Assembly: GCA_037440525.1 (NCBI GenBank)
Contig: JBBITW010000009.1
Span: 1-38,059, forward strand
Source: Deltaproteobacteria bacterium
GTDB lineage: Bacteria; Desulfobacterota; BSN033; UBA1163
Direction: 5' to 3'
DNA length: 38,059 bases
The notes beneath the pieces are model-generated. The model was not told where the DNA came from and did not search any database. It saw only the letters and a program-made list of their open reading frames with translations. Shown here in pieces: positions 809 through 32,814 of the stretch. Position 1 is the stretch's first letter. The number at the start of each line of letters is the position of its first letter. Position numbers and translations under genes: made by a program.

Positions 809-938
809 CCTAAATTGAGCAATTTTTTATAATGTAGCCGCACCCTTTAGGGTGCGAGGGTTCGGCTTGATCCTCACTCAATGGGTGTCTTTTTGACGCA
901 GGCTAAAGATTTCTTTTAAAAGAATCGCTCAATTTAGA
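809..938. mobile_element. Family A MITE-like element, copy A1 (130 bp), carrying a GTAG-REP hairpin
   Basis: TIRs CCTAAATTGAGCAATT (809-824) and AATCGCTCAATTTAGA (923-938); flanked by TAATA on both sides (804-808, 939-943). Confidence 0.8.
834..856 (+). repeat. GTAG-type REP hairpin GTAGC-CGCACCC-TTTA-GGGTGCG, with a probable truncated partner CGCAGGCTAAAG at 897-908
   Basis: GTAG tetranucleotide followed by a perfect 7-bp stem, the usual architecture of GTAG-class REPs. Confidence 0.7.
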
Positions 939-959
939 TAATAGATAGACCAGGTAATT

Positions 960-3900
960 ATGTATCACTTTTTCTTACCAAAGGATGAAAGTCTGGAATA
1001 CTGTTTCAATGTGGAGACATCTGATCCATTGAATTTAGATGAGCTTTCAATTCTAAAGCAGATACTAACAGAAGGTTTTTTAGTGGAAAAAATATCAACC
1101 GAGCCAATGTCACCTGAGGGACATGAGGTGGTAGAACTGGGACCACGTTTGAATTTTGCGACGGCCTATTCAACAAATCTTGTTTCAATCTGTCATACAT
1201 GCGGGCTTAACAAGGTTAACCGTATAGAGCGCTCTCGCCGATACTACCTATCCCCCAAGCTGGATAAGGAGAGTTTTATTCGAGAAAATCATGATCGAAT
1301 GACAGAGTGTGTGTATGACCGACCACTGGAAAGTTTTGAATCTGGGATCGTTCCTGAGCCTGTTTATGAAGTTCCACTTCGGGAGAAGGGGTTGAAGGCC
1401 TTTGAAGAGATTCCTGGTCTTGCAATGGATGAGTGGGATAGAAGGCTCTATTATGATTATTTCGTTAAGGAGGAGAAAAGAAATCCTACAATAGTTGAGA
1501 TAAGGGACCTCGATAATGCAAACAGCGAACACTCACGCCACGGGTATTTCAAAGGTAGACAGATCATAGATGGTGTGGTTATGCCTGAGACACTTCTCGA
1601 TATCGTCAAATCAACGCTTAAGGCTAATCCATCCAATAGCGTTATCGCCTTTAAGGACAATTCAAGCGGGATAAGAGGATATGAATGCTGGACAATTATT
1701 CCACAACAACCTGGCAGGCCTTCACCTTTTGAGAAAGAAAGGGTTCATTACCATATAATCTTTACTGCGGAAACCCACAATTTTCCAACAGGGGTTGCTC
1801 CATTCCCGGGTGCTGAAACAGGCACAGGTGGAAGGCTCATGGATGTACACGCCACGGGAAGAGGGGGCCTTGTGGTGGCTGGAACAACAGGGTACTGTGT
1901 TGCCAACCTTCTTATCCCTAATTATGATCTGCCCTGGGAGGATAAGAAATCTTTTTATCCATCGAACCTGGCTTCCCCCCTTACAATTGAAATAAGGGCA
2001 AGTGATGGGGCAAGCGATTACGGCAATAAGTTTGGAGAACCTGTAATATTAGGTTTTACACGTTCATTTGATCAAAGGCTTCCCGGTGGTGAACGATGGG
2101 CGTGGATTAAACCGATAATGTTCACAGGTGGGATAGGGCAGATCGATGCCCGCCATATAGAGAAAGAGGAACCCCAGAAAGGGATGTTGATTGTTCAGGT
2201 GGGAGGCCCTGCTTATGGAATTGGTGTAAGTGGAGGGTCAGCATCAAGTAAACTCCAGGGGGAGAATATAGAGGAGCTTGATTTTAATGCTGTCCAGCGT
2301 GGCGATGCAGAGATGGAGCAGAAGCTGAATCGTGTTATTCGGGCCTGTATCGAAATGGGTGATAGGAATCCTATTGCAAGTGTACATGACCAGGGTGCAG
2401 GTGGCCCTGCCAACGTGCTGAAGGAACTCGTTGAAAAGGCCGGGGGCAGAATAGAACTGAGGCGTATCAAACTCGGTGATACAACACTCTCTGTTCTTAA
2501 AATATGGATTGCAGAATACCAGGAGCGAAACGGGTTCTTAATTCCCTTTGATAGGATCGAAGAATTCAAATCCATATGCGAGAGGGAAAAGGTTAATTGT
2601 GAGGTCCTCGGAGAGGTTACAGGAGACGGGAGATTCATTGTGCACGATGAAAAGGATGATTCGATCCCTGTAAATCTAAATCTTTCAAAGGTTTTGGGCA
2701 ATATGCCCCAGAAGACATTCAGGGATGAAAGAAAAAGACCTTTACTTGAGCCCATTAAATTGCCGGATTTCCCCAATATCGAAGAGCCCCTTTCTCGTGT
2801 TCTACGAAACCTTGCTGTCTGTTCAAAGAGATTCCTTACAAATAAGGTTGATCGAAGCGTTACGGGATTGATTGCCCGCCAGCAATGCTGCGGCCCACTA
2901 CAATTAACGATTGCTGATGTGGCAGTAATTGCCCAGAGCCACTTCGGTTTAACTGGAGCCGCCACCTCAATTGGAGAACAACCAATAAAAATGCTCATAA
3001 GTCCAGAGGCAGGGGCACGAATGGCAGTTGGAGAGGCATTGACCAATATTGTCTGGGCGAAGGTAAGTGGATTGGAGGATATCAAGTGTTCAGCAAATTG
3101 GATGTGGGCACCAAAGCTTTCGGGTGAAGGCGCAGCCCTTTATGATGCAGTCACCTCGATGAGGGATATTATGATCCGGTTGGGTATTGCAGTGGATGGA
3201 GGAAAGGATAGTCTTTCCATGGCAACCAGGGTTGGAGAGGAGATTGTTAAATCCCCTCGTGAACTTGTAATTTCAGCTTACGTTACAATGCCAGATATTA
3301 CAAAAGTTGTTACTCCTGATTTAAAGAAACCAGGAGAGACAGAATTAATATTCATTGATATAGCCCAAGGCAAGACGCGGCTTGGAGGATCGATTTTAGC
3401 CCAGGTTTACGGTCAGATCGGAGACAATCCCCCTGACCTCGATGACCCTGATATGCTCAAAAGGGCATTTCTTGCAATCCAGGAGTTGATATCAAAAGAT
3501 TTAATTCTTTCAGGACATGACATAAGTGATGGTGGACTTATCACAACCATCCTCGAGATGGCATTTTCAGGAAATTGTGGTTTGAAGATTGAAATGGAAG
3601 GTCCGTGGAGTCCTCTTGAGAGGTTCTTTTCGGAGGAACTGGGGGCTGTAATTGATTGTCATAAAGAGGATACCAGGAAGGTATTGGAGATTCTTGATTC
3701 TTTCAATCTCAACTCGACCCTTATTGGAGAAACAATAAAGGAGAAGAAGATTAGTATCACCTATAATGGATACAGGGTTCTCGAATCGGATATGCGAATT
3801 TTACGCCAGTTATGGGAGGAGACATCATATCAGATCGAACGTCTCCAGATGAATCCCAGTTGCGCAGATGAAGAGAAGAGGAACATCTTTGACCGTAAAG

Positions 3901-5931: not shown

Positions 5932-5955
5932 TCAAGTTGGTCGGAGGTTTATAAA

Positions 5956-7074: not shown

Positions 7075-7088
7075 GGATGAAAGTTATC

Positions 7089-7260
7089 CCTAAATTGAGC
7101 GATTCCAAATTGTCATTCCGAGCGGAGCGAGGAATCTATAAGATTGCAACGCCTTCTGCTCGCAACGACTTCGTCGGATTGCCAAACACCCTTGGGGTGC
7201 TCGCAATGACTGATCCGCCTTTGGCGGAAAGGCTTTTAGTAAAAAATCGCTCAATTTAGG
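7089..7260. mobile_element. Family A MITE-like element, copy A2 (172 bp), carrying GTCATT palindromic modules
   Basis: Perfect 16-bp TIRs CCTAAATTGAGCGATT / AATCGCTCAATTTAGG; internal TGTCATTCCGAGCGGAGCGAGGAATCT, two GATTGC...CTCGCAAYGAC modules, TCCGCCTTTGGCGGA. Confidence 0.85.
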
Positions 7261-7337
7261 TAAAAATATCATCGAGCCGAGCTTTCCATTTTTAAATCAA
7301 TTCATAATTGGAGTTTTTATATAATGGGGGTGTTAAT

Positions 7338-8420: not shown

Positions 8421-8472
8421 GTATTTATTTGGTACCTTGTCAATATCCCTAAGCGGCAATAAAAATGATTTA

Positions 8473-9661: not shown

Positions 9662-9672
9662 GAATTTTTGTA

Positions 9673-13032: not shown

Positions 13033-13144
13033 TATAGGTTTCGATTCATGTAATGTTTTCATAAGGCCCTTACTTTAAGCGAATCCTGGTAAAATAAAAG
13101 TTAATCCTTGATTTAATCAACAATTTTCTTTTAATATTTATCTG

Positions 13145-14878: not shown

Positions 14879-14904
14879 TTTTCTTCTAAAAAGAAAAAGA
14901 GATT

Positions 14905-16458: not shown

Positions 16459-16462
16459 GGCA

Positions 16463-16864: not shown

Positions 16865-16890
16865 ATGTGGATGAGTCTTTCCTTTGAAGA

Positions 16891-20680: not shown

Positions 20681-20738
20681 AAATTATTTTAAGTTCTTAT
20701 CCAATCTCGTTGTCAAAATGGACGAGGATTTTGCTATA

Positions 20739-21293
20739 TCATATTACTCGATAAACCCTTGAGTATGCCTCAAGTGCTGCGGCTACATTTTCATCCTTTT
20801 TTTCGGGGACATTTTCTCTGATGGCCCTGATTATAGAACCTATTGTTACCATTCCTGTAATCTTTGAAAAGGCCCCGAGGATTGCTGTGTTTACACCAGG
20901 AGATGTTGGTGTTCCGAGTCTATGGGAGATGGCGATTGCACCTGCATCAACAATAGCCACTTTATATTTCAAAAAATTATTAAGCTCTATCTCTTTTGAG
21001 CTATTTATAAGAATCCAGCCTCCTTCTTTTAATCCTGCGGTAACATCTATACCCTCGAGTATTAATGTCCAGTCAAGAACGATTAAATGATCAGGTCGAT
21101 ATACATTGGTTCGAATCCTTATAAATTTATAATCCCATCTCGTAAAGGCTGTAACAGGTGCACCCCTTCGCTCAACACCAAAGGCAGGAAATGCCTGAAC
21201 ATACCTTCCGTCATAAAAGAGGGCAGTTGCAAGGACAGCCGAAGCGATAACAGCCCCCTGTCCCCCTCTTCCATGGATTCTAATCTCAATCAT
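20739..21293 (-). CDS. porC: 2-oxoacid:ferredoxin oxidoreductase gamma subunit
   Basis: EIRIHGRGGQG, FGVERRGAPV, NTAILGA motifs. Confidence 0.9.
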   Translation of the reverse strand: MIEIRIHGRGGQGAVIASAVLATALFYDGRYVQAFPAFGVERRGAPVTAFTRWDYKFIRIRTNVYRPDHLIVLDWTLILEGIDVTAGLKEGGWILINSSKEIELNNFLKYKVAIVDAGAIAISHRLGTPTSPGVNTAILGAFSKITGMVTIGSIIRAIRENVPEKKDENVAAALEAYSRVYRVI

Positions 21294-21321
21294 TTTATTC
21301 CTTTAAAATTCATTCAATCAA

Positions 21322-21960
21322 TTAAAAATCTGTATCAAGCATTTCTTCTTTCATTCTCTTAAGATGGCATGTCTCATTCATTAGGGTAAGGATATATCTT
21401 CCGTTTCGATAAAGGATCAGATTGATTGAAGCAGTGTCCTGTCTGATCTGCCAGAAGTGTGAGTTATCTATACCCAGGACACCACAGATAAGAACTTTGT
21501 TTATAACCCGGTGAGAGACAAGAACAATGTTTCCCTCTGAGTGGAGATTGGTAATTTCATTCAATGTGGCCATCGACCTTGCTCTAACATCATCCAGACC
21601 CTCTCCACCAGGAAGTTTAACCATGTGTGGAGATTCAATCCATTTTCGATAGATTTCAGGATCAATCTTTTGAATCTCCCTATGAGAATGTCCTTCCCAA
21701 TTTCCAAAACTCATATCTATGAGGCCGTTAAGGGGTTTAATATCGAGATGATGATACTTAGAAATGAATTGAGCAGTCTGGATTGCACGGGATAGTGGGC
21801 TTGAATAGATTGCAGAAATATCAATATCCCTGAGATATTCGCCCAGAAGTTCCGCCTGTCTTATACCAATCCCATCAAGTGGAATATCACTTCTACCACG
21901 AAAGATCTCTTCCTTATTCCAGGCCGTCTGCCCATGGCGAACAAGATAGATTGATATCAT
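21322..21960 (-). CDS. Histidine phosphatase family protein (GpmB/CobC-like)
   Basis: LVRHGQTAWN, SSPLSRAIQTA, FGNWEG, PGGE, LVSH. Confidence 0.9.
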   Translation of the reverse strand: MISIYLVRHGQTAWNKEEIFRGRSDIPLDGIGIRQAELLGEYLRDIDISAIYSSPLSRAIQTAQFISKYHHLDIKPLNGLIDMSFGNWEGHSHREIQKIDPEIYRKWIESPHMVKLPGGEGLDDVRARSMATLNEITNLHSEGNIVLVSHRVINKVLICGVLGIDNSHFWQIRQDTASINLILYRNGRYILTLMNETCHLKRMKEEMLDTDF

Positions 21961-21982
21961 TAATTTCCTTTCATTATGGTAA

Positions 21983-22987
21983 TCAATCAGAGATTCTTAA
22001 TACACCTGCACCCTGGATCTTGCCCTGTTTCAAGAGGATTAGGGCCCTATTTGCATCCTTTAATTCAAATTCAGTTACTTCAGGGATGATGGGGATTCTT
22101 GAGGCTAACGAGAGGAATTCCTCAACATCCTTCCTTGTAACGTTAGCAACACTCTTTATCTCCTTTTCATCCCATAGGAGCCTTGTATAATCAAGGGGAG
22201 GGATTGGATTTCTTTTTCTTATGACTGCCAAAACCAGTCTCCCGCCTTTTTCTAATAAACTTAATGCCAGAGGAACTGTCTCCCCAACTGGAGTGAAATC
22301 TATTGCAGAGTGAAGTTTTTCAGGAGGATTATCATCTGGATGACCTGTCCATTGCGCCCCCAGTAGTTTTGCAAGTTCTCTATGAGCTTCACTTCTTGAA
22401 AAGACATATACCCTGTAACCTAAATATCTTGCCATCTGGATGACGATGTGGGCGGATGCTCCAAAACCAAAGAGTCCCAGAATCTGATCCCTTTTTATTC
22501 CTGATAACCTTAAGTTTCGGTATCCTATTGCACCTGCACAGAGAAGGGGTGCGGCTTGAGTATCAGAGAATTGATCAGGAATAGGGTAGGCAAAGTCTTC
22601 TCTAACGGTTGTATATTGGGCATAACCCCCATTGGCATTACATCCCGTGGCCTTAAATTCCAGACAGAGGTTTTCTCTCCCTTCATCACAGAATTGACAT
22701 CTTCCGCAGGATGAATTGATCCAGGCAATTCCAACCCTCTCTTGAAGGTTAAATTTTTTGGCCATCGGACCTAATCCTTCTACAGTTCCAACAATTTGGT
22801 GTCCAGGAATGATAGGTAGATTGGGCTGAATCCTTCCTTCTATTTCATCGAGTTCTGTATGGCAAATCCCACAGGTAGAAACCTTTACTAAGATTTCTTT
22901 AGAACTGGGTTCAGGTATAGGTAAATCTACAAATCTTAAAGGTTCTCTCTCAACAGGAGAGATATTATCAAGTATCATTGCTTTCAT
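21983..22987 (-). CDS. Zinc-dependent alcohol dehydrogenase (AdhP-like)
   Basis: CGICHTE, PGHQ, CGRCQFC...C, AAPLLCAG, GFGASAH; start set to ATG 22987 (alternative TTG 23008). Confidence 0.9.
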   Translation of the reverse strand: MKAMILDNISPVEREPLRFVDLPIPEPSSKEILVKVSTCGICHTELDEIEGRIQPNLPIIPGHQIVGTVEGLGPMAKKFNLQERVGIAWINSSCGRCQFCDEGRENLCLEFKATGCNANGGYAQYTTVREDFAYPIPDQFSDTQAAPLLCAGAIGYRNLRLSGIKRDQILGLFGFGASAHIVIQMARYLGYRVYVFSRSEAHRELAKLLGAQWTGHPDDNPPEKLHSAIDFTPVGETVPLALSLLEKGGRLVLAVIRKRNPIPPLDYTRLLWDEKEIKSVANVTRKDVEEFLSLASRIPIIPEVTEFELKDANRALILLKQGKIQGAGVLRISD

Positions 22988-23027
22988 TTTCAGAATCTCT
23001 TTTCCCAATATTTCTGGTTCAATAATA

Positions 23028-23263
23028 TCTAAATTGAGCGATTCTAATCCGCCTGGGGTGGATCAGCCTTGGGCTGAATTGTCATTGCCAGATAAAGTCC
23101 CTACCTTTGATAGGCAGGGAAGCAATCTCAACCAGATTGTCATTCCGAGCGGAGCGAGGAATCTATAAGATTTCCATGTCCCCCACATCAAGTGCGGGGT
23201 GCTCGCAATTACTGATCCGCCTTAGGCGGAAAGGCTTTTGGTAAAAAAATCGTTCAATTTAAG
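23028..23263. mobile_element. Family A MITE-like element, copy A3 (236 bp), with several nested mini-hairpins
   Basis: TIRs TCTAAATTGAGCGATT / AATCGTTCAATTTAAG; flanks TAATA/CAATA; shares the GTCATTCCGAGCGGAGCGAGGAATCT module and the right end with A2 and A4. Confidence 0.85.
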
Positions 23264-23283
23264 CAATAATTTTTCGCCGTAGG

Positions 23284-24024
23284 TTATTTCATCTTTCGAA
23301 TTCTTATCTCAATCTCCTTGGTATCCTTCAGGAGATTTATGATTTTTGAAGTATCTGTCTCACCATAGTGATATGGATAGAGTATCTTCGGTTTAAAGGC
23401 TCGTGCTGCGTCAGCTACCATTTCAGGTGTCATAGTATATGGGAGGTTCATGGGTAAGAATGCGATATCTATTGCCTTGAGTTCTTTCATCTCGGGAATG
23501 TTTTCAGTATCCCCTGCTACGTAGACTCTTTTATCACCAAAGGTAATGATGTAACCATTGCCATTTCCTTTTGGATGGAATGGTTGTCCATTCTCTCTTT
23601 TATGGACGATATTATATGCCGGTACAGCCTCTATCTTCAATCCTCCGATAGTCTTTACATCTCCGTTTTTCATCACCAGGCCACCTTTCACCTGTTTTTC
23701 ACAGAGCTGGGTTAAGACCACCTGTGTCTTCTCTGTTCTAATAATCTTTATAGCATTCAGGTCAAGATGATCGATATGTTCATGTGTGAGAAGGATGATA
23801 TCAGCCTTTGGGAGTTTTGTATAATCAGCCAGTTTGGTCCAGGGGTCTACGTGAATTACTTTCCCACCGAATGTGAACATCAATGTTCCATGGCCTATGA
23901 ATGTAATCTTTAAATCCCCGGAAGAGGTATTGATGATATCGGTTTCAAAACCTTCCTGAGCCATTGCGGATAGGCCAAAAAAAACTACAGTTATAATATT
24001 TATCAATACCAATAAAAGATTCAT
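23284..24024 (-). CDS. MBL-fold metallo-hydrolase with probable signal peptide
   Basis: GHGT, VDP, THEHIDH, VAGDT, PYHYG motifs; AGGAGG RBS; hydrophobic N-terminus ending in AMA. Confidence 0.88.
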   Translation of the reverse strand: MNLLLVLINIITVVFFGLSAMAQEGFETDIINTSSGDLKITFIGHGTLMFTFGGKVIHVDPWTKLADYTKLPKADIILLTHEHIDHLDLNAIKIIRTEKTQVVLTQLCEKQVKGGLVMKNGDVKTIGGLKIEAVPAYNIVHKRENGQPFHPKGNGNGYIITFGDKRVYVAGDTENIPEMKELKAIDIAFLPMNLPYTMTPEMVADAARAFKPKILYPYHYGETDTSKIINLLKDTKEIEIRIRKMK

Positions 24025-24063
24025 ATGGCACCTCCTTAAAAATTGAATTTTTATAACAAATTA

Positions 24064-24092
24064 TATATATCGATTAACACCTCTGATGTCAA
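24064..24092 (-). promoter_or_regulatory. Putative sigma70 promoter of the MBL hydrolase (TTGACA-17bp-TATATA)
   Basis: Perfect -35 at 24092-24087, 17-bp spacer, -10-like hexamer at 24069-24064. Confidence 0.45.
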
Positions 24093-24111
24093 GCCCAGAT
24101 TGATGAGGGTT

Positions 24112-24201
24112 CGGCAAGCCACAAGGGCTTGCCCTACGAGAAATTAAATGAATCACAAACGTAGGGCAAGGGCTTGTCCCTTGCCGTATTTGGTTTCATT
24201 T
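24112..24201. repeat. Inverted pair of GTAG-type REPs (family D); the right unit lies in a 52-bp block duplicated at 32856-32907
   Basis: Minus-strand CGTAG-GGCAAGCC-CTTGT-GGCTTGCC-G (24138-24112) and plus-strand CGTAG-GGCAAGGG-CTTGT-CCCTTGCC-G (24160-24186). Confidence 0.85.
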
Positions 24202-25866
24202 ACTTCCTCTAATAATTCTTTCCAACGAATTCAAAATGAAGTAGTCGAGTATTCTCTTTGATGTCTTTTCTCTAATAAATGAGAAACCCTTATTTGAATC
24301 TCTTCTGAGACTGAAGAAGGCTTTCTCATTTAGAACCATTAATAGAAGTTTCATCCACGGGCTATCTTTTGTATGGATGCCCGAATTAGTATCTATCCTT
24401 ACTTTCTCCTTAAGAAACTGAATCAGTCCTTTAAGAGTAATTCCTTCCTCTATATCTCCACTATCTATTCTCCCTTTAATAAAATTTATGAGCCTTGATA
24501 AACGAAGAATTGTAATAAGATCGAGGCGAGTAAAATCTGATGTCTCTATTGGAAATGCAGTTGAGCGCCACTGGCTTGGAAAAGGGGGAAGGATGGCCTC
24601 CCTTTTACATCTCTCAAATAGAGGTGTTCCAGGAGCAGGGTAATAGATACTCGGTCCGAGAAGAACCCTTTTCCCCATCAGGTAGATTAATGTATCTACC
24701 ATCTCTTCAATTGTTTGACCTGGTATGCCTAATATGGCATATGCAATCACATTAAGACCTTCCTCTTCTGCATCGTCGAGGATATTGCCAAAATCTTCAT
24801 AAGGTCCTGGTCTTTTAAGCCTTTGTTTTGTTGATTCATAAACACTTACCAGGGAGAGATTTAATGTGCGAAATCCTGCCCTTTTCATCAAACTCATAAG
24901 TTCTTTATCCAGTGAGGCAAAAGATACTCCATTCATCGCAAATAGTTCAATTCTGTTTTCACCAAATGTTTTGATGATGAGGTTTAATATCTCCCTTGCC
25001 CTCTTTCTGTCGAATGTAAAATTGTCATCCTCGATATCAAAAGCCTTTATATCATAAAGACTATGACATTCAATCATCTCTCTTATTATATTTTCAGGAG
25101 AACGTGCTCTGAAGTAGGAACCCATGGTGAGATGGGTTGAACAGTATTCACATCCATGTGGACAACCCCTGCTTGTAATGATCATTGTGGATCGCTTCCC
25201 ATTTATTTTATATCTATCGAGATCGAGGAGGTCTATTGATGGATAAGGAATTGAATTTAAATCCTTGATAAAGCTCTCGAGTGGATTTATTCTTATATCT
25301 CCACTATTCCGGTATCCAACTCCATCCATCCCTTCAATCTCTTTCACTTTACCATTTTCAATCCTTTCTATAAGAAGGGGCAGTCGAAACTCTCCCTCCC
25401 CCATGATTACATAATCGACAGATGGATTCTTTAAAACCCCTTCAGGATCAGAGCTTACATGTGATCCTCCCATAATAACTATCTTTCCCTTATTCCACTG
25501 TTTAATGATTTTAGCTACCTTAAGAGCCTCCTGATGATATGGTGTAAAGTTTGAGGATATACCAAAAATATCCGCCTGTGAGGCCTCAATCATTTTTCTT
25601 ATCTCTTCCCATCCCATTCCAAAGTGATAATATCCACTGTAGAGTTTGAAAGGGCTAAGGTCATTATATGGATAGAAATCTTTTAGATAAGATAATTCAT
25701 AAGGAATGGGGGTATTCCTTTTCCTTCCTGCCTGACAATCAAGAATCTCTACATCATGTCCGGCAGTCTTTAATGATGAGGCAATATAGGCAAGCCCGAT
25801 TGGTTGTCGCCGTATTGGGGTCTGATAAAAATCCTCAACAGGTGGCTGTATCAGAAGGATTTTCAT
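24196..25866 (-). CDS. B12-binding domain radical SAM protein
   Basis: PIGLAYIAS, IMGGSH, VIMGEGE, TSRGCPHGCEYC (CxxxCxxC), DDNF, PAPGTPLF. Confidence 0.92.
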   Translation of the reverse strand: MKILLIQPPVEDFYQTPIRRQPIGLAYIASSLKTAGHDVEILDCQAGRKRNTPIPYELSYLKDFYPYNDLSPFKLYSGYYHFGMGWEEIRKMIEASQADIFGISSNFTPYHQEALKVAKIIKQWNKGKIVIMGGSHVSSDPEGVLKNPSVDYVIMGEGEFRLPLLIERIENGKVKEIEGMDGVGYRNSGDIRINPLESFIKDLNSIPYPSIDLLDLDRYKINGKRSTMIITSRGCPHGCEYCSTHLTMGSYFRARSPENIIREMIECHSLYDIKAFDIEDDNFTFDRKRAREILNLIIKTFGENRIELFAMNGVSFASLDKELMSLMKRAGFRTLNLSLVSVYESTKQRLKRPGPYEDFGNILDDAEEEGLNVIAYAILGIPGQTIEEMVDTLIYLMGKRVLLGPSIYYPAPGTPLFERCKREAILPPFPSQWRSTAFPIETSDFTRLDLITILRLSRLINFIKGRIDSGDIEEGITLKGLIQFLKEKVRIDTNSGIHTKDSPWMKLLLMVLNEKAFFSLRRDSNKGFSFIREKTSKRILDYFILNSLERIIRGSK

Positions 25867-25890
25867 GATATTGTAAAATGAAAAATTTAT

Positions 25891-26116
25891 TCTAAATCAA
25901 GCGATCCAAGATTGTCATTCCGAGCTGAGCAATCTCTTCCAAATTGTCATTCCTAACTTACAAAATTGTCATTCCGATCGAAGCGAGGAATCTATGAGAT
26001 TGCCACGTCGCTTCGCTCCTCGCAACGACTTCGTCGGATTGCCACGCCCTTCGGGCTCGCAATGACTGATCCGCCTTTGGCGGAAAGGATTTTAGTAAAA
26101 AATTGCACAATTTAAA
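25891..26116. mobile_element. Family A MITE-like element, copy A4 (226 bp), with degenerate TIRs and three ATTGTCATTCC starts
   Basis: TCTAAATCAAGCGATC / AATTGCACAATTTAAA ends; the 3' ~130 bp closely match A2. Confidence 0.8.
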
Positions 26117-26216
26117 TATAAATGAATTGATAAGATTTTTAAAGGGATTTAAATGGAGAAAGGTCTTAAAGAATCAGATTATTTATTACTCGGAGCAATT
26201 AAATCTTTACAATTAT

Positions 26217-26290
26217 CCCCCTCACCTCGGTTGCGAGTCGTACCGACTTCCCCTCTCCCCAATAAGTGTGGAGAGGGTTAGGGTGAGGGG
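26217..26290. repeat. Family C palindrome CCCCTCACC...CCCTCTCCCC / GGAGAGGG...GGGTGAGGGG with a 20-bp hairpin insert
   Basis: The arms match at 20 of 23 positions once 26227-26246 is removed; the arm plus insert recurs, reverse-complemented, at 32762-32806. Confidence 0.8.
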
Positions 26291-26495
26291 TTCAGACCGG
26301 CAGAAGTCATTTATTTTATGTTCTCATTAATAATTCATTCACTTTTGCAGAAAAAAGTTTGTCATTGCGGGATTTTAATGATCCTTTAATAAAGAAGAAT
26401 CATTATCACAAAAAAGGGGATTTTGAAAAACTCAATTGGTTTAGGTTATATTAAACTGGCTTTAGACTCTCAATTTCAAATCGAGGAGGAAAGGG

Positions 26496-27551
26496 ATGAT
26501 TCGTTTTAAAAAGATTGAGGAAAATGCCACACTTCTAAATCCACTTAAGGATTTTGAGCCTGAAAGTCAACTAATTGAGTATCGTGAGGATCCCCTGAGT
26601 GGTCTTACCTCATTTGTAAGGACAGGAAGGGCATTCTGGGCAAGAATCCAGAAGACTGACAGGGCATGGTTAGAAAGGTTTGTTGAAGAGACGAGGGAGA
26701 GATGTTTCTTCTGCCCGGATAAACTCGAAGCATCGACTCCAAGATTTCCGAAAGATTTTATCCCCGAGGGAAGGCTTACCCGTGGAGAGGCCACCATATT
26801 TCCAAACCTTTTTGCCCATAAAAAGTATTCTGCTATTATTGCAATGACGAAGAATCACTACCTGAACCTCAATGAGTTTACCCCGGATGTCTTTTTTAAT
26901 GCATTTAAATTAGCAGATTTCTATATTCGGCGTGCTCATGAATTAAGCGGGGTAGAACACGCTGAGATAGGAGTCAATTACCTTTATCCTGGTGGTGCCA
27001 GTATTGCTCATCCCCATCTTCAGGCCATTGCCTCTCACGCACCACACTATTTGATAAAGGTTTATATGGAAAAAGGAAGGGCCTATTATAAAAAATATTC
27101 TAAGAATTATTGGGAGGAATTGATTGTTAAGGAGAAAGAACTCGGTGAGAGGTATATTGGAAGAACAGGTTCTATACACTGGTTTACTCCATTTGCACCA
27201 ATAAGAGAGGATGAGGTGGATGGGGTTGTTGAGGGGAAGTCAAATTTCCTTGAGTTTGATGACGGCGACTGGGAAGGTCTTTCTCAGGGAGTAACGAGGG
27301 TTTTGAAGGCATATCACGATAAAGGTTTCTCTTCTTTCAACTTTGCAATTTATTCGGGACCTCTGGGTAAAAGAATTAAGTACCTCTGGGCAGGGATAAG
27401 GATTGTTTCACGCTCAAGTGTTCAGACATATCCAGTGAATGATACCTGGTATTCAAACTGTATCCTTCTCGATGGTTTTGTCGCTGAACCACCAGAGGAG
27501 ATTGCAAACTGGATACGCCCGTATTTTCAGACCCAGAAAGATTTACGGTAA
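26496..27551 (+). CDS. Galactose-1-phosphate uridylyltransferase-like (GalT/HIT) protein
   Basis: EYREDPLSG, CFFCP, FPNLF, GASIAHPHLQ (HxHxQ active site). Confidence 0.8.
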   Translation: MIRFKKIEENATLLNPLKDFEPESQLIEYREDPLSGLTSFVRTGRAFWARIQKTDRAWLERFVEETRERCFFCPDKLEASTPRFPKDFIPEGRLTRGEATIFPNLFAHKKYSAIIAMTKNHYLNLNEFTPDVFFNAFKLADFYIRRAHELSGVEHAEIGVNYLYPGGASIAHPHLQAIASHAPHYLIKVYMEKGRAYYKKYSKNYWEELIVKEKELGERYIGRTGSIHWFTPFAPIREDEVDGVVEGKSNFLEFDDGDWEGLSQGVTRVLKAYHDKGFSSFNFAIYSGPLGKRIKYLWAGIRIVSRSSVQTYPVNDTWYSNCILLDGFVAEPPEEIANWIRPYFQTQKDLR

Positions 27552-27691
27552 TGAAGCTAAAGCAGAAATTCGGTGATCTGGCAAGGGATGACAGATCTTT
27601 TAACTTTTTCACTTTTGGATCAAGATGGGTTGACCAGTTAAACTTATTGTGATAAATCTGTAAATATAGAGATTGAGGAGGAGGAAATAGA

Positions 27692-29020
27692 ATGTCCATG
27701 ACAAAAAATGATGTACTCCAGATGGCAAAGGAGAAGGATGTAAAATTTGTAAGACTCTGGTTCACAGATATCCTTGGCTTTCTTAAAAGTTTTGCCATTA
27801 CCGTAAGAGAGCTTGAAGGGGCACTTGAAGAGGGGATGGGTTTTGATGGTTCTTCAATCCTTGGTTTCGTCAGGATTGACGAGAGTGATATGGTTGCTAT
27901 GCCTGATCCCTCAACCTTCAGGATTATTCCCTGGATGGCAAACGAACATGTTGTAGCTACCATGTTCTGTGATATCCTTGAGCCTGATGGAAGACCTCAC
28001 CAGGGAGATCCGCGCTGGGTATTAAAGAAGAATTTAAAAAGGGCTTCTGATATGGGATATACATTCTATGTGGGCCCTGAACTTGAATACTTCTATTTTC
28101 AGAAATCCAAAGGAAAACCTGAACCACTTGACTCAGGTGGATACTTTGATTTAACACCTCTCGATGTAGCAAGTGATCTGAGGAAACAGACTGCTGTGAT
28201 ATTAGAGGAGATGGGAATTCCAGTGGAATATTCACATCATGAGGTAGCCCCCAGTCAGCATGAGATTGATCTCAAATACAGGGATGCCTTGACAATGGCA
28301 GATAGTACAATGATTTATCGTCTTGTCGTTAAAGAGGTTGCACTGAAGAACGGAGTTTACGCAACCTTTATGCCAAAACCCATTTTTGGTGTAAACGGAA
28401 GTGGAATGCATACCCATCAATCACTTTTTAAAGGGGATAAGAATGCATTCTTTGATCCTCAGGATAAATATCATCTTTCAAAGATTGCTAAACACTATAT
28501 TGCAGGCCTGATGAAACACGCAAGGGAGATTACACTGATAACGAACCAATGGGTGAATTCATATAAAAGGCTTGTCCCAGGATATGAGGCACCGGTCTAT
28601 ATCTCCTGGGCCCAAAGAAACCGCTCTGACCTCATTAGGATCCCAGTTTATAAACCTGGAAAGGAGCTTGCTACAAGGGTCGAATACCGTTCTCCTGACC
28701 CTGCCTGTAATCCTTACTTAGCATTTTCGGTGATGCTTGCAGCAGGCCTTGAGGGGATCGAGAAGGAATATCCTCTGAAGGATCCTGTAGAGCGCAATGT
28801 CTATGAGATGAGTGAAGAGGAAAGGAGGAGATACAATATCGAATCTCTACCTGAGGATCTCTATGAGGCAATAAAAATAACTGAGAAGAGCGAACTTGTG
28901 AGGAATGCACTCGGGGATCATGTCTTTAACAGATTTATTGAAAATAAAAAGGTTGAATGGGAACGTTATCGTGCACAGGTAACAGATTATGAATTGGAGC
29001 AATACTTTTCAATTTTATAA
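27692..29020 (+). CDS. glnA: Glutamine synthetase type I
   Basis: FDGSSI, GPELEYF, HHEVAPSQHE, ATFMPKP..NGSGMH, NSYKRLVPGYEAP, EYRSPDP. Confidence 0.95.
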   Translation: MSMTKNDVLQMAKEKDVKFVRLWFTDILGFLKSFAITVRELEGALEEGMGFDGSSILGFVRIDESDMVAMPDPSTFRIIPWMANEHVVATMFCDILEPDGRPHQGDPRWVLKKNLKRASDMGYTFYVGPELEYFYFQKSKGKPEPLDSGGYFDLTPLDVASDLRKQTAVILEEMGIPVEYSHHEVAPSQHEIDLKYRDALTMADSTMIYRLVVKEVALKNGVYATFMPKPIFGVNGSGMHTHQSLFKGDKNAFFDPQDKYHLSKIAKHYIAGLMKHAREITLITNQWVNSYKRLVPGYEAPVYISWAQRNRSDLIRIPVYKPGKELATRVEYRSPDPACNPYLAFSVMLAAGLEGIEKEYPLKDPVERNVYEMSEEERRRYNIESLPEDLYEAIKITEKSELVRNALGDHVFNRFIENKKVEWERYRAQVTDYELEQYFSIL

Positions 29021-29031
29021 TGGAGGGGTAA

Positions 29032-29673
29032 ATGGATCAAATTAGGGAGTGGTGGGTAGAAGAAAGGGCAAAGAGTGTAATCCAAAGGCTTAAGGAACAT
29101 GATTTTGAGGCAATCTATTTAAAGACCAGGCAGGATGCTTCTGAAGAAATCCTGAAACATGTCTCATCAAACATGAAGATTGGGGTTGGAGGATCAGTTA
29201 CAATAAGGGAATTGGGGATATTAGAAAGATTGAAAGAGAAAGGTAATATCATTCTCGATCACTGGGTGCCAGGGCTAAAAAGAGATGAATCGATTGAACT
29301 TAGAAGATCACAAATGACATCAGATCTATTTTTAAGTAGTGCCAATGCTGTTACCCTCAAAGGTGAGATTGTAAACATCGATGGCATAGGGAATCGGATC
29401 AACTCAATAAGTTTCGGACCAAAAAAGGTCATACTCGTAGCAGGCTATAATAAAATCGTGGGGAATTTGGATGAAGCCATCCAGAGGATAAAGAATGTTG
29501 CTGCTCCACTCAATGCAAGACGTCTAAATATTGATGTGCCATGTGCAAAGACAGGGAGATGTGTGGATTGTAACTCCCCGAACCGAATCTGTAGGGTCAT
29601 GGTAATTCTTGAGAGGAGGCCATCATTAACAGATATGTTGATCATTTTGGTTGGTGAAGAATTGGGGTTTTGA
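29032..29673 (+). CDS. LUD-domain (lactate utilization protein C-like) protein
   Basis: VGGSVT, SSANAVTLKGEIVNIDGIGNR, GYNKIV, PCAKTGRCVDCNSPNRIC. Confidence 0.8.
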   Translation: MDQIREWWVEERAKSVIQRLKEHDFEAIYLKTRQDASEEILKHVSSNMKIGVGGSVTIRELGILERLKEKGNIILDHWVPGLKRDESIELRRSQMTSDLFLSSANAVTLKGEIVNIDGIGNRINSISFGPKKVILVAGYNKIVGNLDEAIQRIKNVAAPLNARRLNIDVPCAKTGRCVDCNSPNRICRVMVILERRPSLTDMLIILVGEELGF

Positions 29674-29715
29674 GAGAGGCAGGGTTATACATTACGAACT
29701 ATAGGGGGCAAAGAT

Positions 29716-31278
29716 ATGGGTAAGATCAGGAGGGCAATCATAAGCGTATCGGATAAATCAGGTATAGTAATGTTTGCAAAGGGTTTGGTCCAGTTGGGTG
29801 TAGAGATCCTCTCCACAGGCGGGACTGCAAAGACATTGAGAGATAATGATATCCCAGTGAAGGAGATCTCAGAATATACTGGATTTCCTGAGATGCTGGA
29901 TGGCAGGGTAAAGACACTTCATCCAAAGATCCATGGGGGTCTTTTGGGGCAGAGATCCAGAGCCGAGCATATGGCGAAGATGAAGGAGTATGGCATCACT
30001 CCTATTGATCTCGTGGTGGTAAATCTCTACCCATTTGAGGCAACCGTTGCAAAGGATGATTGTACCCTTGAGGAGGCTATTGAAAATATAGATATTGGTG
30101 GGCCTACAATGCTGAGGTCGGCTGCAAAGAACTATCCTGATGTTACAGTGATTGTGGATCCCGAAGACTATGAATCTGTGCTCTCTGAATTGAAAGAAAA
30201 GGGTGAAGTATCAATTGAAACAAATTTTCGATTGGCAAAAAAGGTTTTTCAGCATACAGCCCGCTACGATGGCGCCATATCCAACTATCTCGGTCTAATA
30301 AAAAATGGTAAAAAGGTCACTTCATTTCCAGAAACCTTTACATTTCAGGTGAAGAAGGTTCAGGAGCTACGTTATGGTGAAAACCCTCATCAGAAGGCTG
30401 CTTTTTATTGTGAGTATTTTTTTAAGGAGCCTTCTGTTTCAAATTCCATCCAGCTCCATGGTAAGGAGCTTTCATTCAATAATATTCTCGATCTCGATTC
30501 AGCATTTGAAACAGTAAAGGAATTTGAAGAGCCAGCAGCAGTGATTATTAAACATAATAACCCGTGTGGTGTGGCCATCTCTTCAAGTAGTCTGGCAGAG
30601 GCCTTCAGGAAGGCCAAAGACTGCGACCCTGTATCTGCCTTCGGTGGAGTTGTGGGTTTCAATAGAGAAATAGACGAAGATACTGCAAAGGAGATGTTTG
30701 AAATCTTTCTTGAGGTTATTATTGCTCCAGGTTTTAGGCCTGAAGCCTTAGAGGTTCTTAAGAAGAAGAAGGATCTGAGGATTCTTCAATCACCCCCTCT
30801 AAAGAGCCTTTTTCAAAGAGGGGGATTTGATTTAAGAAAGGTTGTGGGGGGACTGTTGGTTCAGGATAGAGATCTCGGCAATGTTTCGATAGATCAATGG
30901 AGGGTTGTAACAAAGAGAAGTCCTACAGAGGAGGAGAAGAGGGCAATGGCCTTTGGCTGGAAGGTTGCAAAACATGTCAAATCAAATGCTATTGTCCTCT
31001 GCAGGGAAGACAGGACAATAGGTATTGGGGCGGGTCAGATGAGCAGGGTGGATTCCACAAGGCTGGCTGTGATGAAGGCCCAATCTTCAACAAAAGGATG
31101 CGCACTGGCCTCGGACGCAATGTTTCCGTTTAGGGATGGAGTGGATACTGGAGCTGAAGCCGGTGCAACGGCAATTATTCAACCAGGAGGCTCTATTAGA
31201 GATGATGAGGTGATTGCAGCCGCGGATGAACATAATATTGCTATGGTCTTTACAGGTATAAGGCACTTCAGACATTGA
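29716..31278 (+). CDS. purH: Bifunctional AICAR formyltransferase/IMP cyclohydrolase
   Basis: [57 protein letters not shown]. Confidence 0.97.
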
Positions 31279-31284
31279 TTTTTT

Positions 31285-31352
31285 AATCGTGAATGGGGAA
31301 TCGTGATTCATAGATTAATAAATGATAGAAGAGCCCGAGTCACGAATCACGA
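31285..31352. repeat. Short heptamer-like repeats in inverted arrangement (AATCGTG-AATGGGG-AATCGTG ... GAGTCAC-GAATCAC)
   Basis: Perfect 9-bp IR TCGTGATTC (31301-31309) / GAATCACGA (31344-31352) with 7-bp periodicity on both sides. Confidence 0.45.
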
Positions 31353-31359
31353 GGTTTAT

Positions 31360-32631
31360 ATGAAGATTCTGGTAGTTGGTGGTGGAGGAAGGGAGCATGC
31401 CCTGGTCTGGAAGATAAGCCAGAGCAGGAGGGTTTCGAAAATCTATTGTGCCCCTGGAAATGCAGGTATTTCCAAACAGGCAGAGATTGTTTCAATTAAG
31501 GCGAATGATTTAGATGGTCTTCTAAAATTTGCCTTAAGAGAAGAGATTGATTTAACGGTTATTGGCCCAGAAGAACCATTGACAAAGGGTATAGTTGATA
31601 TTTTTGAATCGAATGGACTTCCTATTTTCGGACCGAGTAAGAAGGCAGCACAGATTGAGGGAAGCAAAGTCTTTGCAAAGGAGATGATGATGAAATATCA
31701 TATTCCAACGGCTTCCTTCGAAATATTCAACAATAGCAGAGAGGCGATTGATTACATTCGAAAAAAAGGAGCGCCGATTGTTGTAAAGGCAGATGGTCTC
31801 GCAGGTGGGAAAGGGGCTATCGTCTGTAAAACCATTGAAGAGGCTATTAAAGCAGTTGAGAGAATAATGGTGGAGAAGATTTTTGGAGAGGCAGGAAATA
31901 GAATTGTCGTGGAGGAATATCTTGTTGGAGAGGAAGCCTCCTATATCGCATTTACAGATGGAAAATCAATACTTCCTTTGGCCTCATCACAGGACCATAA
32001 AGCGGTCTTCGATGGAGATGAAGGCCCAAACACAGGTGGGATGGGAGCTTACTCTCCGGCACCTGTTGTCACGGATGAAATGCATGAGAAGATTATTGGG
32101 AAAATATTGAGACCCATAATCTATGGTATGAATGAGGAAGGCAGTTCTTATAAAGGCGTCATTTATGCTGGTTTGATGATCTATGAAGGTGAACCTAAGG
32201 TATTGGAGTTTAATGCCCGATTTGGAGACCCCGAAACACAACCTGTACTTATGAGGATGAAGGGGGATATAGTTCCAATCCTTGAGGCCTGTATCAAAGG
32301 AGAACTATCAAGGTGCAAGATAGAATGGGATAAAAAGGCATCTGTTTGTGTGGTTATGACCTCTAAGGGATACCCCGGGGATTATGAAAAGGGAAAGGTT
32401 ATAAAGGGACTTGATGAGGTTTCATCCATGGAGGATATCTTTGTATTTCATGCTGGCACAGCATTAAAGAATGGTATGATGGTTACAAATGGAGGGAGGG
32501 TCTTAGGGGTTACAGGGCTGGGAGAAGATATCCAAAGGGCAATTGAGCGAACCTACAATGCTGTCAGGAAGATCTCATGGGAAGGGGTCCACTATAGAAC
32601 CGATATTGGTTATAAGGCATTGTGTAGATAA
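31360..32631 (+). CDS. purD: Phosphoribosylamine--glycine ligase
   Basis: MKILVVGGGGREHAL (start reset to 31360), APGNAG, KADGLAGGKG, GPNTGGMGAY, RFGDPETQ, FHAGT. Confidence 0.97.
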   Translation: MKILVVGGGGREHALVWKISQSRRVSKIYCAPGNAGISKQAEIVSIKANDLDGLLKFALREEIDLTVIGPEEPLTKGIVDIFESNGLPIFGPSKKAAQIEGSKVFAKEMMMKYHIPTASFEIFNNSREAIDYIRKKGAPIVVKADGLAGGKGAIVCKTIEEAIKAVERIMVEKIFGEAGNRIVVEEYLVGEEASYIAFTDGKSILPLASSQDHKAVFDGDEGPNTGGMGAYSPAPVVTDEMHEKIIGKILRPIIYGMNEEGSSYKGVIYAGLMIYEGEPKVLEFNARFGDPETQPVLMRMKGDIVPILEACIKGELSRCKIEWDKKASVCVVMTSKGYPGDYEKGKVIKGLDEVSSMEDIFVFHAGTALKNGMMVTNGGRVLGVTGLGEDIQRAIERTYNAVRKISWEGVHYRTDIGYKALCR

Positions 32632-32647
32632 ATTGAGTTAATCTATA

Positions 32648-32814
32648 TCTAAATTGAGCGATTTTAGATTGTCATTGCGAAGCAATCTCTTCCAAATTGT
32701 CATTCCTCGCTCCGCTCGGAATGACAAACATGGCATACACCTCATCCGACACAGCCTCTTCGGGGAGAGGGTTGGGTCGGTACGACTCGCAACTGAAGTG
32801 AGGGGGAATTTAGG
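32648..32814. mobile_element. Family A MITE-like element, copy A5 (167 bp), composite cargo; right TIR reduced to AATTTAGG
   Basis: Full left TIR TCTAAATTGAGCGATT, GTCATT modules, solo CGACACAGCCTC end, family C arm; TA on both flanks. Confidence 0.7.

Follow-up and report, generated by a model that had tools for sequence, protein, structure and literature searches.

The window, that is, the whole stretch of 38,059 nucleotides that was analysed, carries five repeats which the first-pass annotation had described as copies of one element with a common terminal inverted repeat, here called family A. The 15-nt end motif of the family, CTAAATTGAGCGATT, has 10 matches at up to three mismatches in the window, whereas shuffled versions of the window gave a mean of 1.92 matches and none of 100 shuffles reached 10. 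Nine of the ten coincide with the ends given in the annotation, and the tenth (29031-29045, three mismatches), which lies on a gene start, looks like a chance match. The five copies and the features beside them are as follows.

A1: 809..938, no strand assigned; lineage II (GTAG-hairpin) MITE of 130 bp, shortened
Left target-site duplication of A1, TAATA: 804..808, no strand assigned; right copy at 939-943, read from the sequence
A2: 7089..7260, plus strand; lineage I MITE of 172 bp, both ends exact
A3: 23028..23263, plus strand; lineage I MITE of 236 bp, extra Q module before the GTCATT array
A4: 25891..26116, plus strand; lineage I MITE of 226 bp, three GTCATT starts
Arms-only family-B element: 26217..26290, no strand assigned; adjoins A4, outside family A; compared with other family-B arms
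A5, family-A part: 32648..32717, plus strand; left end, short hairpin GTCATTGCGAAGCAATCT, spacer and first half of the H2 hairpin
A5, family-B part: 32718..32812, minus strand; inverted left arm of family B, compared with other family-B arms

Good inverted ends bound A1, A2 and A3, those of A4 are degenerate with three mismatches apiece, and A5 lacks a right end; the description of five copies with a common terminal repeat is confirmed in part. The ends of A1 lie at 810-824 (one mismatch) and 923-937 (exact), and in comparison with 10 other lineage-II copies its middle CCGCC hairpin is missing and only half of its second GTAG hairpin is left; its DNA fold has z = -3.55. A2 (z = -6.39) starts with an H end and its GTCATTCC hairpin, continues with two GATTGCC...CGCAAYGAC hairpins and finishes in a P end composed of CCGCCTTTGGCGG and then AAAGGCTTTTAGTAAAAAA. 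The Q module of A3 consists of the CCGCCTGGGGTGG and CAGCCTTGGGCTG hairpins, and A4 is an older lineage I MITE. The flanks of A1 (TAATA on both sides) and of A3 (TAATA at 23023-23027 and CAATA at 23264-23268, matching at four of five positions) had been read correctly. The flanks of A2 are TTATC and TAAAA, and no 5-bp duplication is preserved in A2, A4 or A5.

A5 is a chimera of family A and family B and is incomplete as a family-A element. Its family-A part comprises the left end, which was counted among the unpaired ends of the genome, and two GTCATT hairpins; the junction with the family-B part falls inside the H2 hairpin. On the minus strand the family-B arm reads CCCCCTCAC...CCCTCTCCCC...GAGGCTGTGTCG...GGTGTATGCCATGTTTGTCATTCC, and a family-A right end is absent from the locus. 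The right end proposed for A5, AATTTAGG (32807-32814), was rejected, being 8 nt only and belonging to the family-B terminus AAATTCCCCCTCACC on the other strand. As a separate observation, the arms-only family-B element beside A4 (CCCCCTCACC...CCTCTCCCC / GGAGAGGG...GGGTGAGGGG) shows that this spacer is a mosaic.

Abundance, placement and target sites

A search of the 3.55-Mb genome with the end motif, followed by pairing of the ends as the annotation had advised, returned 298 matches at up to two mismatches (115 exact, 111 with one and 72 with two), while the reversed motif, used as the control, gave no exact, no one-mismatch and seven two-mismatch matches. These ends form 88 pairs, 90-400 bp long and most often 146 bp, in which ORFs are not involved; three long 'pairs' contain ordinary genes and represent separate elements. 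An average of one copy in about 8 kb is right for the window, but genome-wide the 298 ends correspond to about one element per 16-24 kb. At the same cut-off 129 ends have no partner: 74 of them adjoin a family interior, and in 10 the sequence is truncated or masked within 75 nt, in most cases where a contig ends. The split of the 90%-complete assembly into 318 contigs is attributable to family-A repeats, where breaks often fall, since 21 unpaired ends lie at most 100 nt from a contig end.

Family-A elements are nearly all intergenic. Removal of the element restored a reading frame of at least 150 aa in 1 of 87 cases, compared with 360 of 485 at random positions, and between genes of the same direction no orientation bias was found (18 vs 19). 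Of 29 orthologous loci in relatives, 26 keep the two genes around A1 next to each other, with 1-35 bp between them in 11 cases; in the studied genome this spacer measures 157 bp, 130 bp of it A1. All 26 relatives that keep the pair, which belong to other genera, lack the end motif there. The gene order around A2 and A3 was kept in none of 29 and none of 14 relatives' loci, respectively. Contigs compared for strict empty sites within the species end at the elements.

The flanks of the pairs are a 5-bp duplication with the consensus TNNNA, located directly outside Y...R. Of 87 pairs, 43 have a perfect copy of it (3.2 on average and at most 9 under permutation), about half of the pairs thus lacking one, and 60 have it with up to one mismatch, compared with 16.7 expected. 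Because outer bases that depart from the consensus are duplicated as well (ATATT, ATCTA, TTAAT), the duplication is 5 bp long, not 3 bp next to longer ends. The TA noted at seven of ten flanks in the window is correct, though it is a by-product of the TNNNA duplication, and the IS630-like affinity that it had been said to suggest did not hold up. A 2-bp boundary repeat does not exceed permutation (7 vs 15.4 and 15 vs 20.3), and a MITE of the IS630/Tc1-mariner type was ruled out, there being no excess of TA repeats and the signal lying at 5 bp.

An IS1380-type partner

As had been noted, the elements of family A are non-autonomous and bounded by terminal inverted repeats, and a transposase is absent from the window; none was found inside the short family-A elements either. 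The long, transposase-encoding copy that the annotation had called for was found outside the studied genome. A contig from a related genus (G002:C128) contains a 1.73-kb insertion sequence (IS) with family-A ends, CCTAAATAGAGCGATT and CCTAAATTGAGCGATT, with TAAGA on either side. Its 479-aa ORF reaches 194.9 bits with the NCBIfam model of the IS1380 family, NF033539, whose cut-off is 180, and has an E value of 4.9e-22 on Pfam DDE_Tnp_1_4 (PF13701). Moreover, 80 metagenome loci encode relatives at 50-100% identity. Where the flank is long enough, 52 of 57 loci have the end motif upstream and 58 of 59 have it downstream; both ends carry it in 51 of the 80. The metagenome copies have a median length of 1732 bp and ends of 16 bp, and 74 of 88 flanking 5-mers are of the form T...A. 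Identical 5-mers on both sides occur in only 9 of 44 complete copies, which may be due to chimeric assembly of a multi-copy element. A plasmid of Solidesulfovibrio carbinolicus carries a 48%-identical copy whose ends, CCTAACCTGAGCGATT and CCTAAATTGATCGTTT, lie 1727 bp apart. As the same ends bound IS1380-type elements in G002 and in these 51 metagenome loci, family A is assigned to IS1380-type MITEs and not to IS630-like ones.

Conserved IS end sequences recur in Nitrospirae-labelled genomes, in Desulfobacterales, in Scalindua and in others, and the IS1380 clade with these ends is widespread and seems to be undescribed. Within the taxonomic family, a full transposase is encoded in only one of 55 genomes, to which one fragment is added. 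In the studied genome (90%-complete assembly, 318 contigs) the cognate transposase was not found, the best matches, both under the family cut-off, being a remnant on contig C69 and a fragment of 33% identity where another contig breaks off. Copies in the studied genome have a median identity of 90% in lineage I (n=9) and 76% in lineage II (n=11). Given these identities and the missing cognate transposase, we infer that the copies are old and may have ceased to move. In G002, three of the four copies compared are 99.6-100% identical to one another, and the fourth is about 90% identical to them; this genome with near-identical copies also contains the IS.

None of the 51 complete IS copies holds the hairpin modules, which indicates that the interiors of the MITEs do not come from the IS. 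The annotation had taken it as established that the interior of a MITE usually comes from its parent IS, a rule that is too strict.

Interior lineages and competing explanations

The interiors fall mainly into two lineages. Lineage I, in which an H or Q end is combined with a P or P2 end (63 of 88 pairs), is an array of GTCATT...AATCT hairpins that a CCGCC hairpin and a T/A-rich tail bring to a close. Lineage II, the GTAG type (11 of 88), is a doublet of GTAGCCGC hairpins. The subterminal sequences are fixed in each of the two lineages of the studied genome, hairpins are gained or lost inside each lineage, and only 1 of 88 pairs is an H/GTAG chimera. Lineage I is also present in two other genera (genomes G003 and G018), and G002 and G009 have a third interior in common. 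That lineage I is alike in three genera argues that the whole element was inherited or transferred and not captured repeatedly. The interiors in the window differ as the annotation described. Those of 54 short elements bounded by the same ends form 21 clusters; 51 of these elements come from other genomes and three are references, two from the studied genome and one from G002.

One hairpin, H2 (GTCATTCCGAGCGRAGCGAGGAATCT), is common to family A and family B, and only 150 of its 395 matches lie within 300 bp of the end motif. Chimeras of the two families account for 6 of the 298 ends plus A5, among them a complete end-bounded element (C239:529-724) of which one side is a family-B arm. All of them join at H2, which indicates recombination as their source.

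The first-pass annotation saw the end pair as an active vehicle by which unrelated REP-like palindromes are taken up, reshuffled and dispersed, in which case exchange of cargo would be one of its regular properties. The at least 21 unrelated interiors inside the same ends (51 of the 54 elements coming from many phyla), the absence of the modules from complete IS copies, the sharing with family B of H2, most of whose matches lie away from the end motif, and the existence of chimeras would all suit such a vehicle, as would the uptake of adjacent DNA via end-like sequences by ISPme1 and ISEcp1, both of the IS1380 family, which is described in the accessible part of PMC9330008. Regular exchange is nevertheless hard to reconcile with two lineages of fixed subterminal sequence that make up most pairs and have yielded a single cross-lineage chimera, or with the likeness of lineage I across three genera. 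The family-B chimeras are few and join where homology-driven recombination predicts, and the GTAG hairpins are rare outside the shell, since 16 of their 22 copies are no more than 300 bp from the end motif and three others are at contig ends. We therefore regard active capture as quite improbable. With these 19 of 22 copies so placed, the GTAG hairpins are not an independent REP family in the studied genome, and it is very unlikely that the hairpins are REPs or REPINs spread by a RAYT-like tyrosine transposase and inserted secondarily into MITEs. The GTAG start and inverted doublet of lineage II, reminiscent of REPINs, five above-cut-off matches to Pfam Y1_Tnp in the genome, the GTAG dimers in long palindromic shells of Anabaena variabilis (PMC3733652, as far as its available text goes) and single GTCATT-type hairpins outside any shell (e.g. 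C143:1445 and near C8:37270) would fit that origin, but none of four Y1_Tnp loci is surrounded by inverted GTCATT or GTAG hairpin pairs or has the end motif within 1.2 kb, and in Scalindua genomes the GTAG hairpins occupy the same place beside the same ends.

A regulatory palindrome or transcription-factor site kept in spacers by selection could explain a motif that is conserved across phyla and sits in intergenic elements, but it hardly deserves credence in view of the 5-bp duplications around the elements, the transposase-bearing element ended by the same motif in 51 loci, the unbiased orientation relative to genes and the absence of the motif from the A1 spacer in 26 relatives. A broader alternative is that the IS1380-clade end pair serves as an unusually promiscuous shell, which in various phyla has come to enclose at least 21 unrelated interiors, and that a small hairpin vocabulary is exchanged between otherwise unrelated miniature elements. 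The GTCATT...AATCT and GTAGCCGC hairpins may then circulate by hairpin-templated strand switching, and the folded interior may be kept as it helps the transposase to draw the two ends together. We consider this unlikely; if true, it would come near the annotation's proposal, albeit over evolutionary time and between families, and 'shell' and 'filler' would be separable, exchangeable parts in evolution.

Set beside the observed ends, duplication, partner elsewhere, intergenic placement, lineages and chimera junctions, the explanation that we hold to be very probable is that family A represents MITEs moved in trans by an IS1380-family DDE transposase, with two hairpin lineages and rare recombination. 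The autonomous IS, about 1.73 kb long with 16-bp ends (CCTAAATTGAGCGATT), targets AT-rich 5-bp TNNNA sites and duplicates them, and its transposase would presumably mobilise the MITEs, which retain only about 25-28 nt of each IS end, the remainder being a chain of hairpins absent from the IS. Differences in length and content inside a lineage would arise when whole hairpins or inner loops are lost, duplicated or replaced; slippage or recombination is the putative source of these changes. Rare recombination at the H2 hairpin would generate the chimeras with family B, of which A5 is one.

Relation to known elements and significance

Insertion sequences of the IS1380 family typically produce 4-5-bp duplications (ISfinder; ISEcp1 literature). 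The partner resembles members such as ISEcp1, ISPme1 and IS1380 in its length of about 1.7 kb, short ends starting with CC, 5-bp duplication and AT-rich sites, whereas its transposase is only about 23% identical to ISEcp1-type plasmid transposases, its ends are different, and its hosts are uncultured sediment and subsurface bacteria. ISPme1 and ISEcp1 form modules of an IS plus an adjacent gene (TMos), according to the part of PMC9330008 at hand. Unlike these TMos, family A consists of miniatures without transposase, both ends of which are authentic copies of the motif. Some bacterial MITEs are built from insertion-sequence ends, e.g. Correia, RUP, Nezha and Chunjie, and like them family A is small, non-coding, multi-copy and intergenic, has terminal inverted repeats and a duplication, shares its ends with an autonomous IS and has a strongly folding interior. 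BIMEs of enterobacteria and BOX elements of pneumococci are mosaic small repeats. Family A shares with them an interior composed of a few kinds of hairpin module whose number and order vary, and several repeat families interleaved in one spacer; BIMEs and BOX elements, however, lack transposon-type terminal inverted repeats and a duplication, while the family-A modules sit in a bona fide MITE frame. Both are named in the portion of PMC3184786 that is available.

In Anabaena variabilis, GTAG-tagged REP dimers are located in long palindromic shells (Di Nocera et al. 2013, PMC3733652), and, to the extent covered by the available sections of that article, lineage II likewise has a GTAG-hairpin doublet inside a longer inverted repeat and a shell not found without the hairpins. 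The Anabaena shell, by the same sections, has another sequence and is tied to no transposase, whereas that of lineage II is an IS1380-type end pair with a 5-bp duplication. Tn3-type end-only miniature elements have 38-bp ends and 5-6-bp duplications at AT-rich sites and can yield mosaic non-autonomous elements with foreign cores (2014, PMC4133298, in its accessible portion). Family A is similarly end-only, with a short duplication at AT-rich sites; judging from the same portion, the Tn3-type elements depend on another transposase family, and the capture of plasmid segments was shown experimentally for them, unlike for family A. A printed link between IS1380 and MITEs was not found in the accessible text of the listed papers naming both, and the 2024 MITE review (PMC10969869) does not contain 'IS1380'.

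Family A is thus an ordinary kind of element, and the family itself seems to be undescribed; the variety of its interiors is real but mostly orderly, and the general picture of MITEs is unchanged by it. An abundant repeat now has an enzyme and a mechanism, both put forward at the strength given above, with the TA/IS630 guess replaced by IS1380 and a 5-bp TNNNA target. Transposon biology gains an IS1380 clade that gave rise to many MITE families, and the common hairpin vocabulary together with the H2 junctions offers a clean natural data set on small-repeat recombination.

End motif, target-site duplication and insertion sites

Searching the window with the 15-nt end motif of family A (CTAAATTGAGCGATT) at up to 3 mismatches returned 10 matches, compared with a mean of 1.9 in shuffled windows, where 10 matches were reached in none of 100 shuffles. 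Nine of these coincide with ends named in the first-pass annotation, while the tenth (29031-29045), placed over the start of a gene, seems to be a chance match. That annotation had described five elements bounded by terminal inverted repeats, which holds with good inverted ends for A1, A2 and A3 and with degenerate ends for A4; A5 possesses a left end only, as the 8 nt taken for its right end are sequence of family B, a second repeat family sharing the hairpin H2. No Rfam model matched the window at gathering thresholds.

Repeats in the window
809-938: A1, family A, flanks TAATA/TAATA
7089-7260: A2, family A
23028-23263: A3, family A, flanks TAATA/CAATA
25891-26116: A4, family A
32648-32814: A5, family A joined to family B
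26217-26290, 32718-32812 and 32900-32960: family B, nested palindromic arms CCCCCTCACC...CCTCTCCCC...GAGRCTGTGTCGCAATGAGG

Across the source assembly (3.55 Mb, 318 contigs, G+C 40.4%), in which the window is contig C9, the motif occurs 115 times exactly, 111 times with one mismatch and 72 times with two, whereas the motif read backwards as a control gave 0, 0 and 7 matches, respectively. Plus and minus matches combine into 98 pairs, 88 of which span 90-400 bp with a mode at 146 bp. Among the 129 unpaired ends (up to two mismatches), 74 carry the usual interiors, 45 adjoin other sequence and 10 are masked or cut short within 75 nt, mostly at contig ends; for 21 of the 129, the nearest contig end is no more than 100 nt away. 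These counts indicate that family A is real and large, with roughly 150-220 copies, and that most motif copies mark paired element ends rather than free sites, contrary to the mostly unpaired occurrence that had been named as an alternative. Three motif pairs of 1.3-1.5 kb were considered as full-length copies and rejected, since they enclose ordinary open reading frames (acyl-CoA dehydrogenase-like, lipoprotein-like and transporter-like in a by-eye reading of the translations) and are thus neighbouring elements.

With the element boundaries set as Y + motif ... motif + R, 43 of 87 pairs have the same five bases outside either end (mean 3.2 and maximum 9 when partners were permuted), and 60 of 87 pairs differ by at most one mismatch, compared with 16.7 expected. 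The duplication consensus is T-N-N-N-A, and outer bases departing from it are repeated as well (ATATT, ATCTA, AGTTA, TTAAT), showing that the duplication takes in all five bases; the family-A pairs are fitted by no other offset or duplication length. The earlier tally, with TA at seven of the ten flanks, was correct and is explained by the T...A form of the targets, while a 2-bp TA duplication found no support in the genome-wide pair test, where the signal stands at 5 bp.

Family-A copies are intergenic: when the element is cut out, a long open reading frame is regained in only 1 of 87 cases, compared with 360 of 485 for random positions. A terminator or promoter role of the lineage I elements (GTCATT-hairpin arrays) was also considered; these asymmetric elements favour neither orientation between genes that point the same way (18 versus 19), giving no hint of either role. 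The proposed comparison with orthologous empty sites could be made for A1, whose two flanking genes are also neighbours at 26 of 29 loci from relatives. The spacer there measures 1-35 bp in 11 of the 26 and contains the motif in none, while that of the source genome measures 157 bp, of which A1 takes 130 bp; subtracting A1 and one TAATA leaves 22 bp. The A1 locus is therefore an empty-like site in relatives, not a strict empty site, because these relatives belong to other genera. The A2 and A3 loci are not comparable, since gene order is not kept (neighbouring gene adjacent in 0 of 29 and 0 of 14 loci, respectively). In four coded sequencing runs inspected over 13100-33000 as assembled contigs only, contigs stop at the elements and none is joined across.

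Two side observations concern these sites. The spacer orthologous to that of A1 (window 803-959) carries different small palindromic repeats in other genera (loci L217-L246), for example a hairpin with C and G runs around TTAATTTAA, and looks like a recurrent landing site. Moreover, in run X1 the bins with A3, A4 and A5 reach a summed contig depth of 320-790, versus about 5-10 elsewhere in 13100-33000, and depth over these bins is elevated in X3 too, which comes from a different study; the repeats of these bins are thus very abundant in both communities, contig depth not being copy number.

An autonomous IS1380 partner

Within the taxonomic family of the source genome, 12 of 18 genomes contain the motif (up to one mismatch); of 12 genomes representing the two other sampled families of the class, only 2 do, with 1-2 matches each. 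In G002, a genome of another genus, two paired motifs with a spacing of 1.73 kb surround a 479-aa ORF, with TAAGA on both sides; its product scores 194.9 bits against the NCBIfam model NF033539 (IS1380 family transposase; cut-off 180) and matches Pfam DDE_Tnp_1_4 (E 4.9e-22). A metagenome scan with this transposase gave 80 loci of 50-100% identity. Where enough flank was available, the motif is where expected on the upstream side in 52 of 57 loci and on the downstream side in 58 of 59, and 51 of the 80 carry it at both ends. These copies have a median length of 1732 bp, and their flanking 5-mers read T...A in 74 of 88 cases, though the two sides are the same in only 9 of 44. An unannotated copy, 48% identical, lies on a Solidesulfovibrio carbinolicus plasmid, with ends 1727 bp apart and two mismatches each. 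ISEcp1-type transposases are about 23% identical to the G002 type. As the same ends bound an IS1380-family element in G002, in metagenomes and on the plasmid, the earlier suggestion of an IS630-like parent is replaced by IS1380.

A long transposase-encoding copy, for which the first-pass annotation had proposed a search, thus exists in G002 and metagenomes. In the incomplete assembly of the source genome, searches with the G002 protein and the NF033539 model found only a fragment at the end of contig C8 (33% identical) and a remnant on contig C69 with diverged ends, one being AATTTATTGATTTAGG. Among 55 genomes of the taxonomic family, in assemblies that are incomplete and break at repeats, the transposase was found only in G002, plus a fragment in G065. 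Hairpin modules are absent from all 51 complete IS copies, and IS and family A are alike only in their ends plus about 10 T-rich bases.

Interior lineages, family B and chimeras

The 88 pairs were classed by the sequence adjoining each end.

Element pairs by end type (H, Q, P and P2 denote end types)
H...P: 47 pairs
H...P2: 10 pairs
Q with P or P2: 4 pairs
H with Q: 2 pairs
GTAG type: 11 pairs
GTAG/H chimera: 1 pair
At least one other end: 13 pairs

Lineage I runs from the end through CCAGATT, GTCATTGCGA(loop)GCAATCT, CTNCCAAATT, GTCATTCCGAGCGRAGCGAGGAATCT (the hairpin H2) and ATRA to one or two GATTGCCACG(loop)CGCAAYGAC units, TGAT, an optional extra hairpin, CCGCCTTTGGCGG, AAAGGCTTTTAGTAAAAAA and the opposite end, its length of 119-344 bp varying as whole hairpins and inner loops are present or absent. 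Lineage II, a GTAG-hairpin doublet of which A1 is a shortened copy, consists of an end, a T-rich stretch, GTAGCCGCACCCTTCAGGGTGCG..., the CCGCCAAAGGCGG hairpin, ...ACGCAGGCTAAAGCCTGCGGCTAC, an A/T-rich stretch and the other end. Both lineages fold much more strongly than shuffled sequence, the z values as DNA being -3.55 for A1 and -6.39 for A2. For compensatory change in the H2 stem, 264 modules yielded 6 double TC/GA variants against 12 one-sided ones, which is too few to show that the stem structure is maintained, and the variants are perhaps related copies. Lineage I also occurs in two other genera (G003 and G018), and a third interior, homologous-looking by eye, is common to G002 and G009. 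In G002, where the IS is present, three of four compared copies share 99.6-100% identity, while source-genome copies are about 90% (lineage I) and about 76% (lineage II) alike; this lower identity fits an old, possibly inactive population.

The first-pass annotation had proposed a shell that captures and shuffles unrelated REP-like cargo. The interiors are indeed varied, and exchange between them does occur. Nevertheless, the GTAG hairpins are not independent cargo: 16 of 22 have an end motif no further than 300 bp away and another 3 are at contig ends, and nearly the same hairpins occupy the same place beside the same ends in Scalindua genomes. H2 is more widespread, with 395 matches genome-wide and 150 near an end motif, the others lying mostly in family B and some in arrays or as single hairpins. 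Family B itself is abundant (127 arm cores; arms CCCCCTCACC...CCTCTCCCC...GAGRCTGTGTCGCAATGAGGTGTATGCCATGTTT) and has GTCATTCCGAGCCTCCTTTTTCT units in tandem as well as an insert, CTCGGTTGCGAGTCGTACCGACC, that is optional. Only 6 of 298 family-A ends, plus A5, run into a family-B arm, always at H2; in A5 two H2 copies meet head to head (GTCATTCC-TCGCTCCGCTC-GGAATGAC). Five matches to a Y1 tyrosine transposase fall at four loci, none flanked by the hairpins. Exchange of interiors is therefore rare, and looks more like recombination at a common hairpin than capture by the shell.

Further hairpins were noted along the way. A GTAG-led hairpin, GTAGGGCAAGGGCTTGTCCCTTGCC, in the spacer after A5 (window 32866-32893) has a near copy beside a family-B arm on contig C220 and may be a true free REP-type repeat. 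GTCATTCC-type arrays with other loops and partners, e.g. AGATTTCTCACATTCGTTCGAAATGAC, occur at G000:C131:9600-9950 and C200:3000-3200 of the source genome, outside families A and B, so hairpins of this vocabulary are carried elsewhere as well. At G000:C274:1700-3300, a 319-aa ORF combines a Y1 tyrosine-transposase-like N-terminal part with a further C-terminal part, and none of the repeats studied flanks it.

Spread across phyla and published parallels

An exact-match motif scan with one genome per species gave at least 122 loci and at least 128 ends; by record titles, the matches listed span many phyla, with Nitrospirae, Desulfobacterales, Scalindua, Bacteroidales and Acidobacteriota among the labels. 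By estimate, chance alone would produce 15-mer matches in a data set of this size. Among the matches listed, however, A-Y stands just outside the motif at 92 of 128 ends, T at -6 at 108 and a partner within 415 nt at 61, so most of these matches are real ends. Clustering of interiors bore out their diversity: 54 short elements fall into 21 clusters, so that between lineages and taxa one shell is fitted with many fillers.

PMC9330008 describes the IS1380 members ISPme1 and ISEcp1 as mobilising adjacent DNA by misreading end-like sequences, and such misreading is a possible route to new fillers. GTAG dimers inside long palindromes are described from Anabaena variabilis (PMC3733652), and TIMEs are presented in PMC4133298 as end-only Tn3 derivatives that build mosaic elements. 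An article search covering titles, abstract openings and some text passages found, among the papers listed, no published tie between MITEs and IS1380; the word IS1380 is absent from the 2024 review PMC10969869, and a search for MITE plus Nitrospirae found no papers.

On the boldest reading, which we doubt but would not dismiss, the shell and its hairpin filler would be separate units swapped on an evolutionary timescale, perhaps as folding helps transposition. The family-A elements are true MITEs of an IS1380-type insertion sequence; they are abundant and carry a 5-bp duplication of the form TNNNA. Their varied interiors are two lineages of hairpin chains, shaped, as judged from sequence, by loss and gain of modules and by rare recombination with family B.
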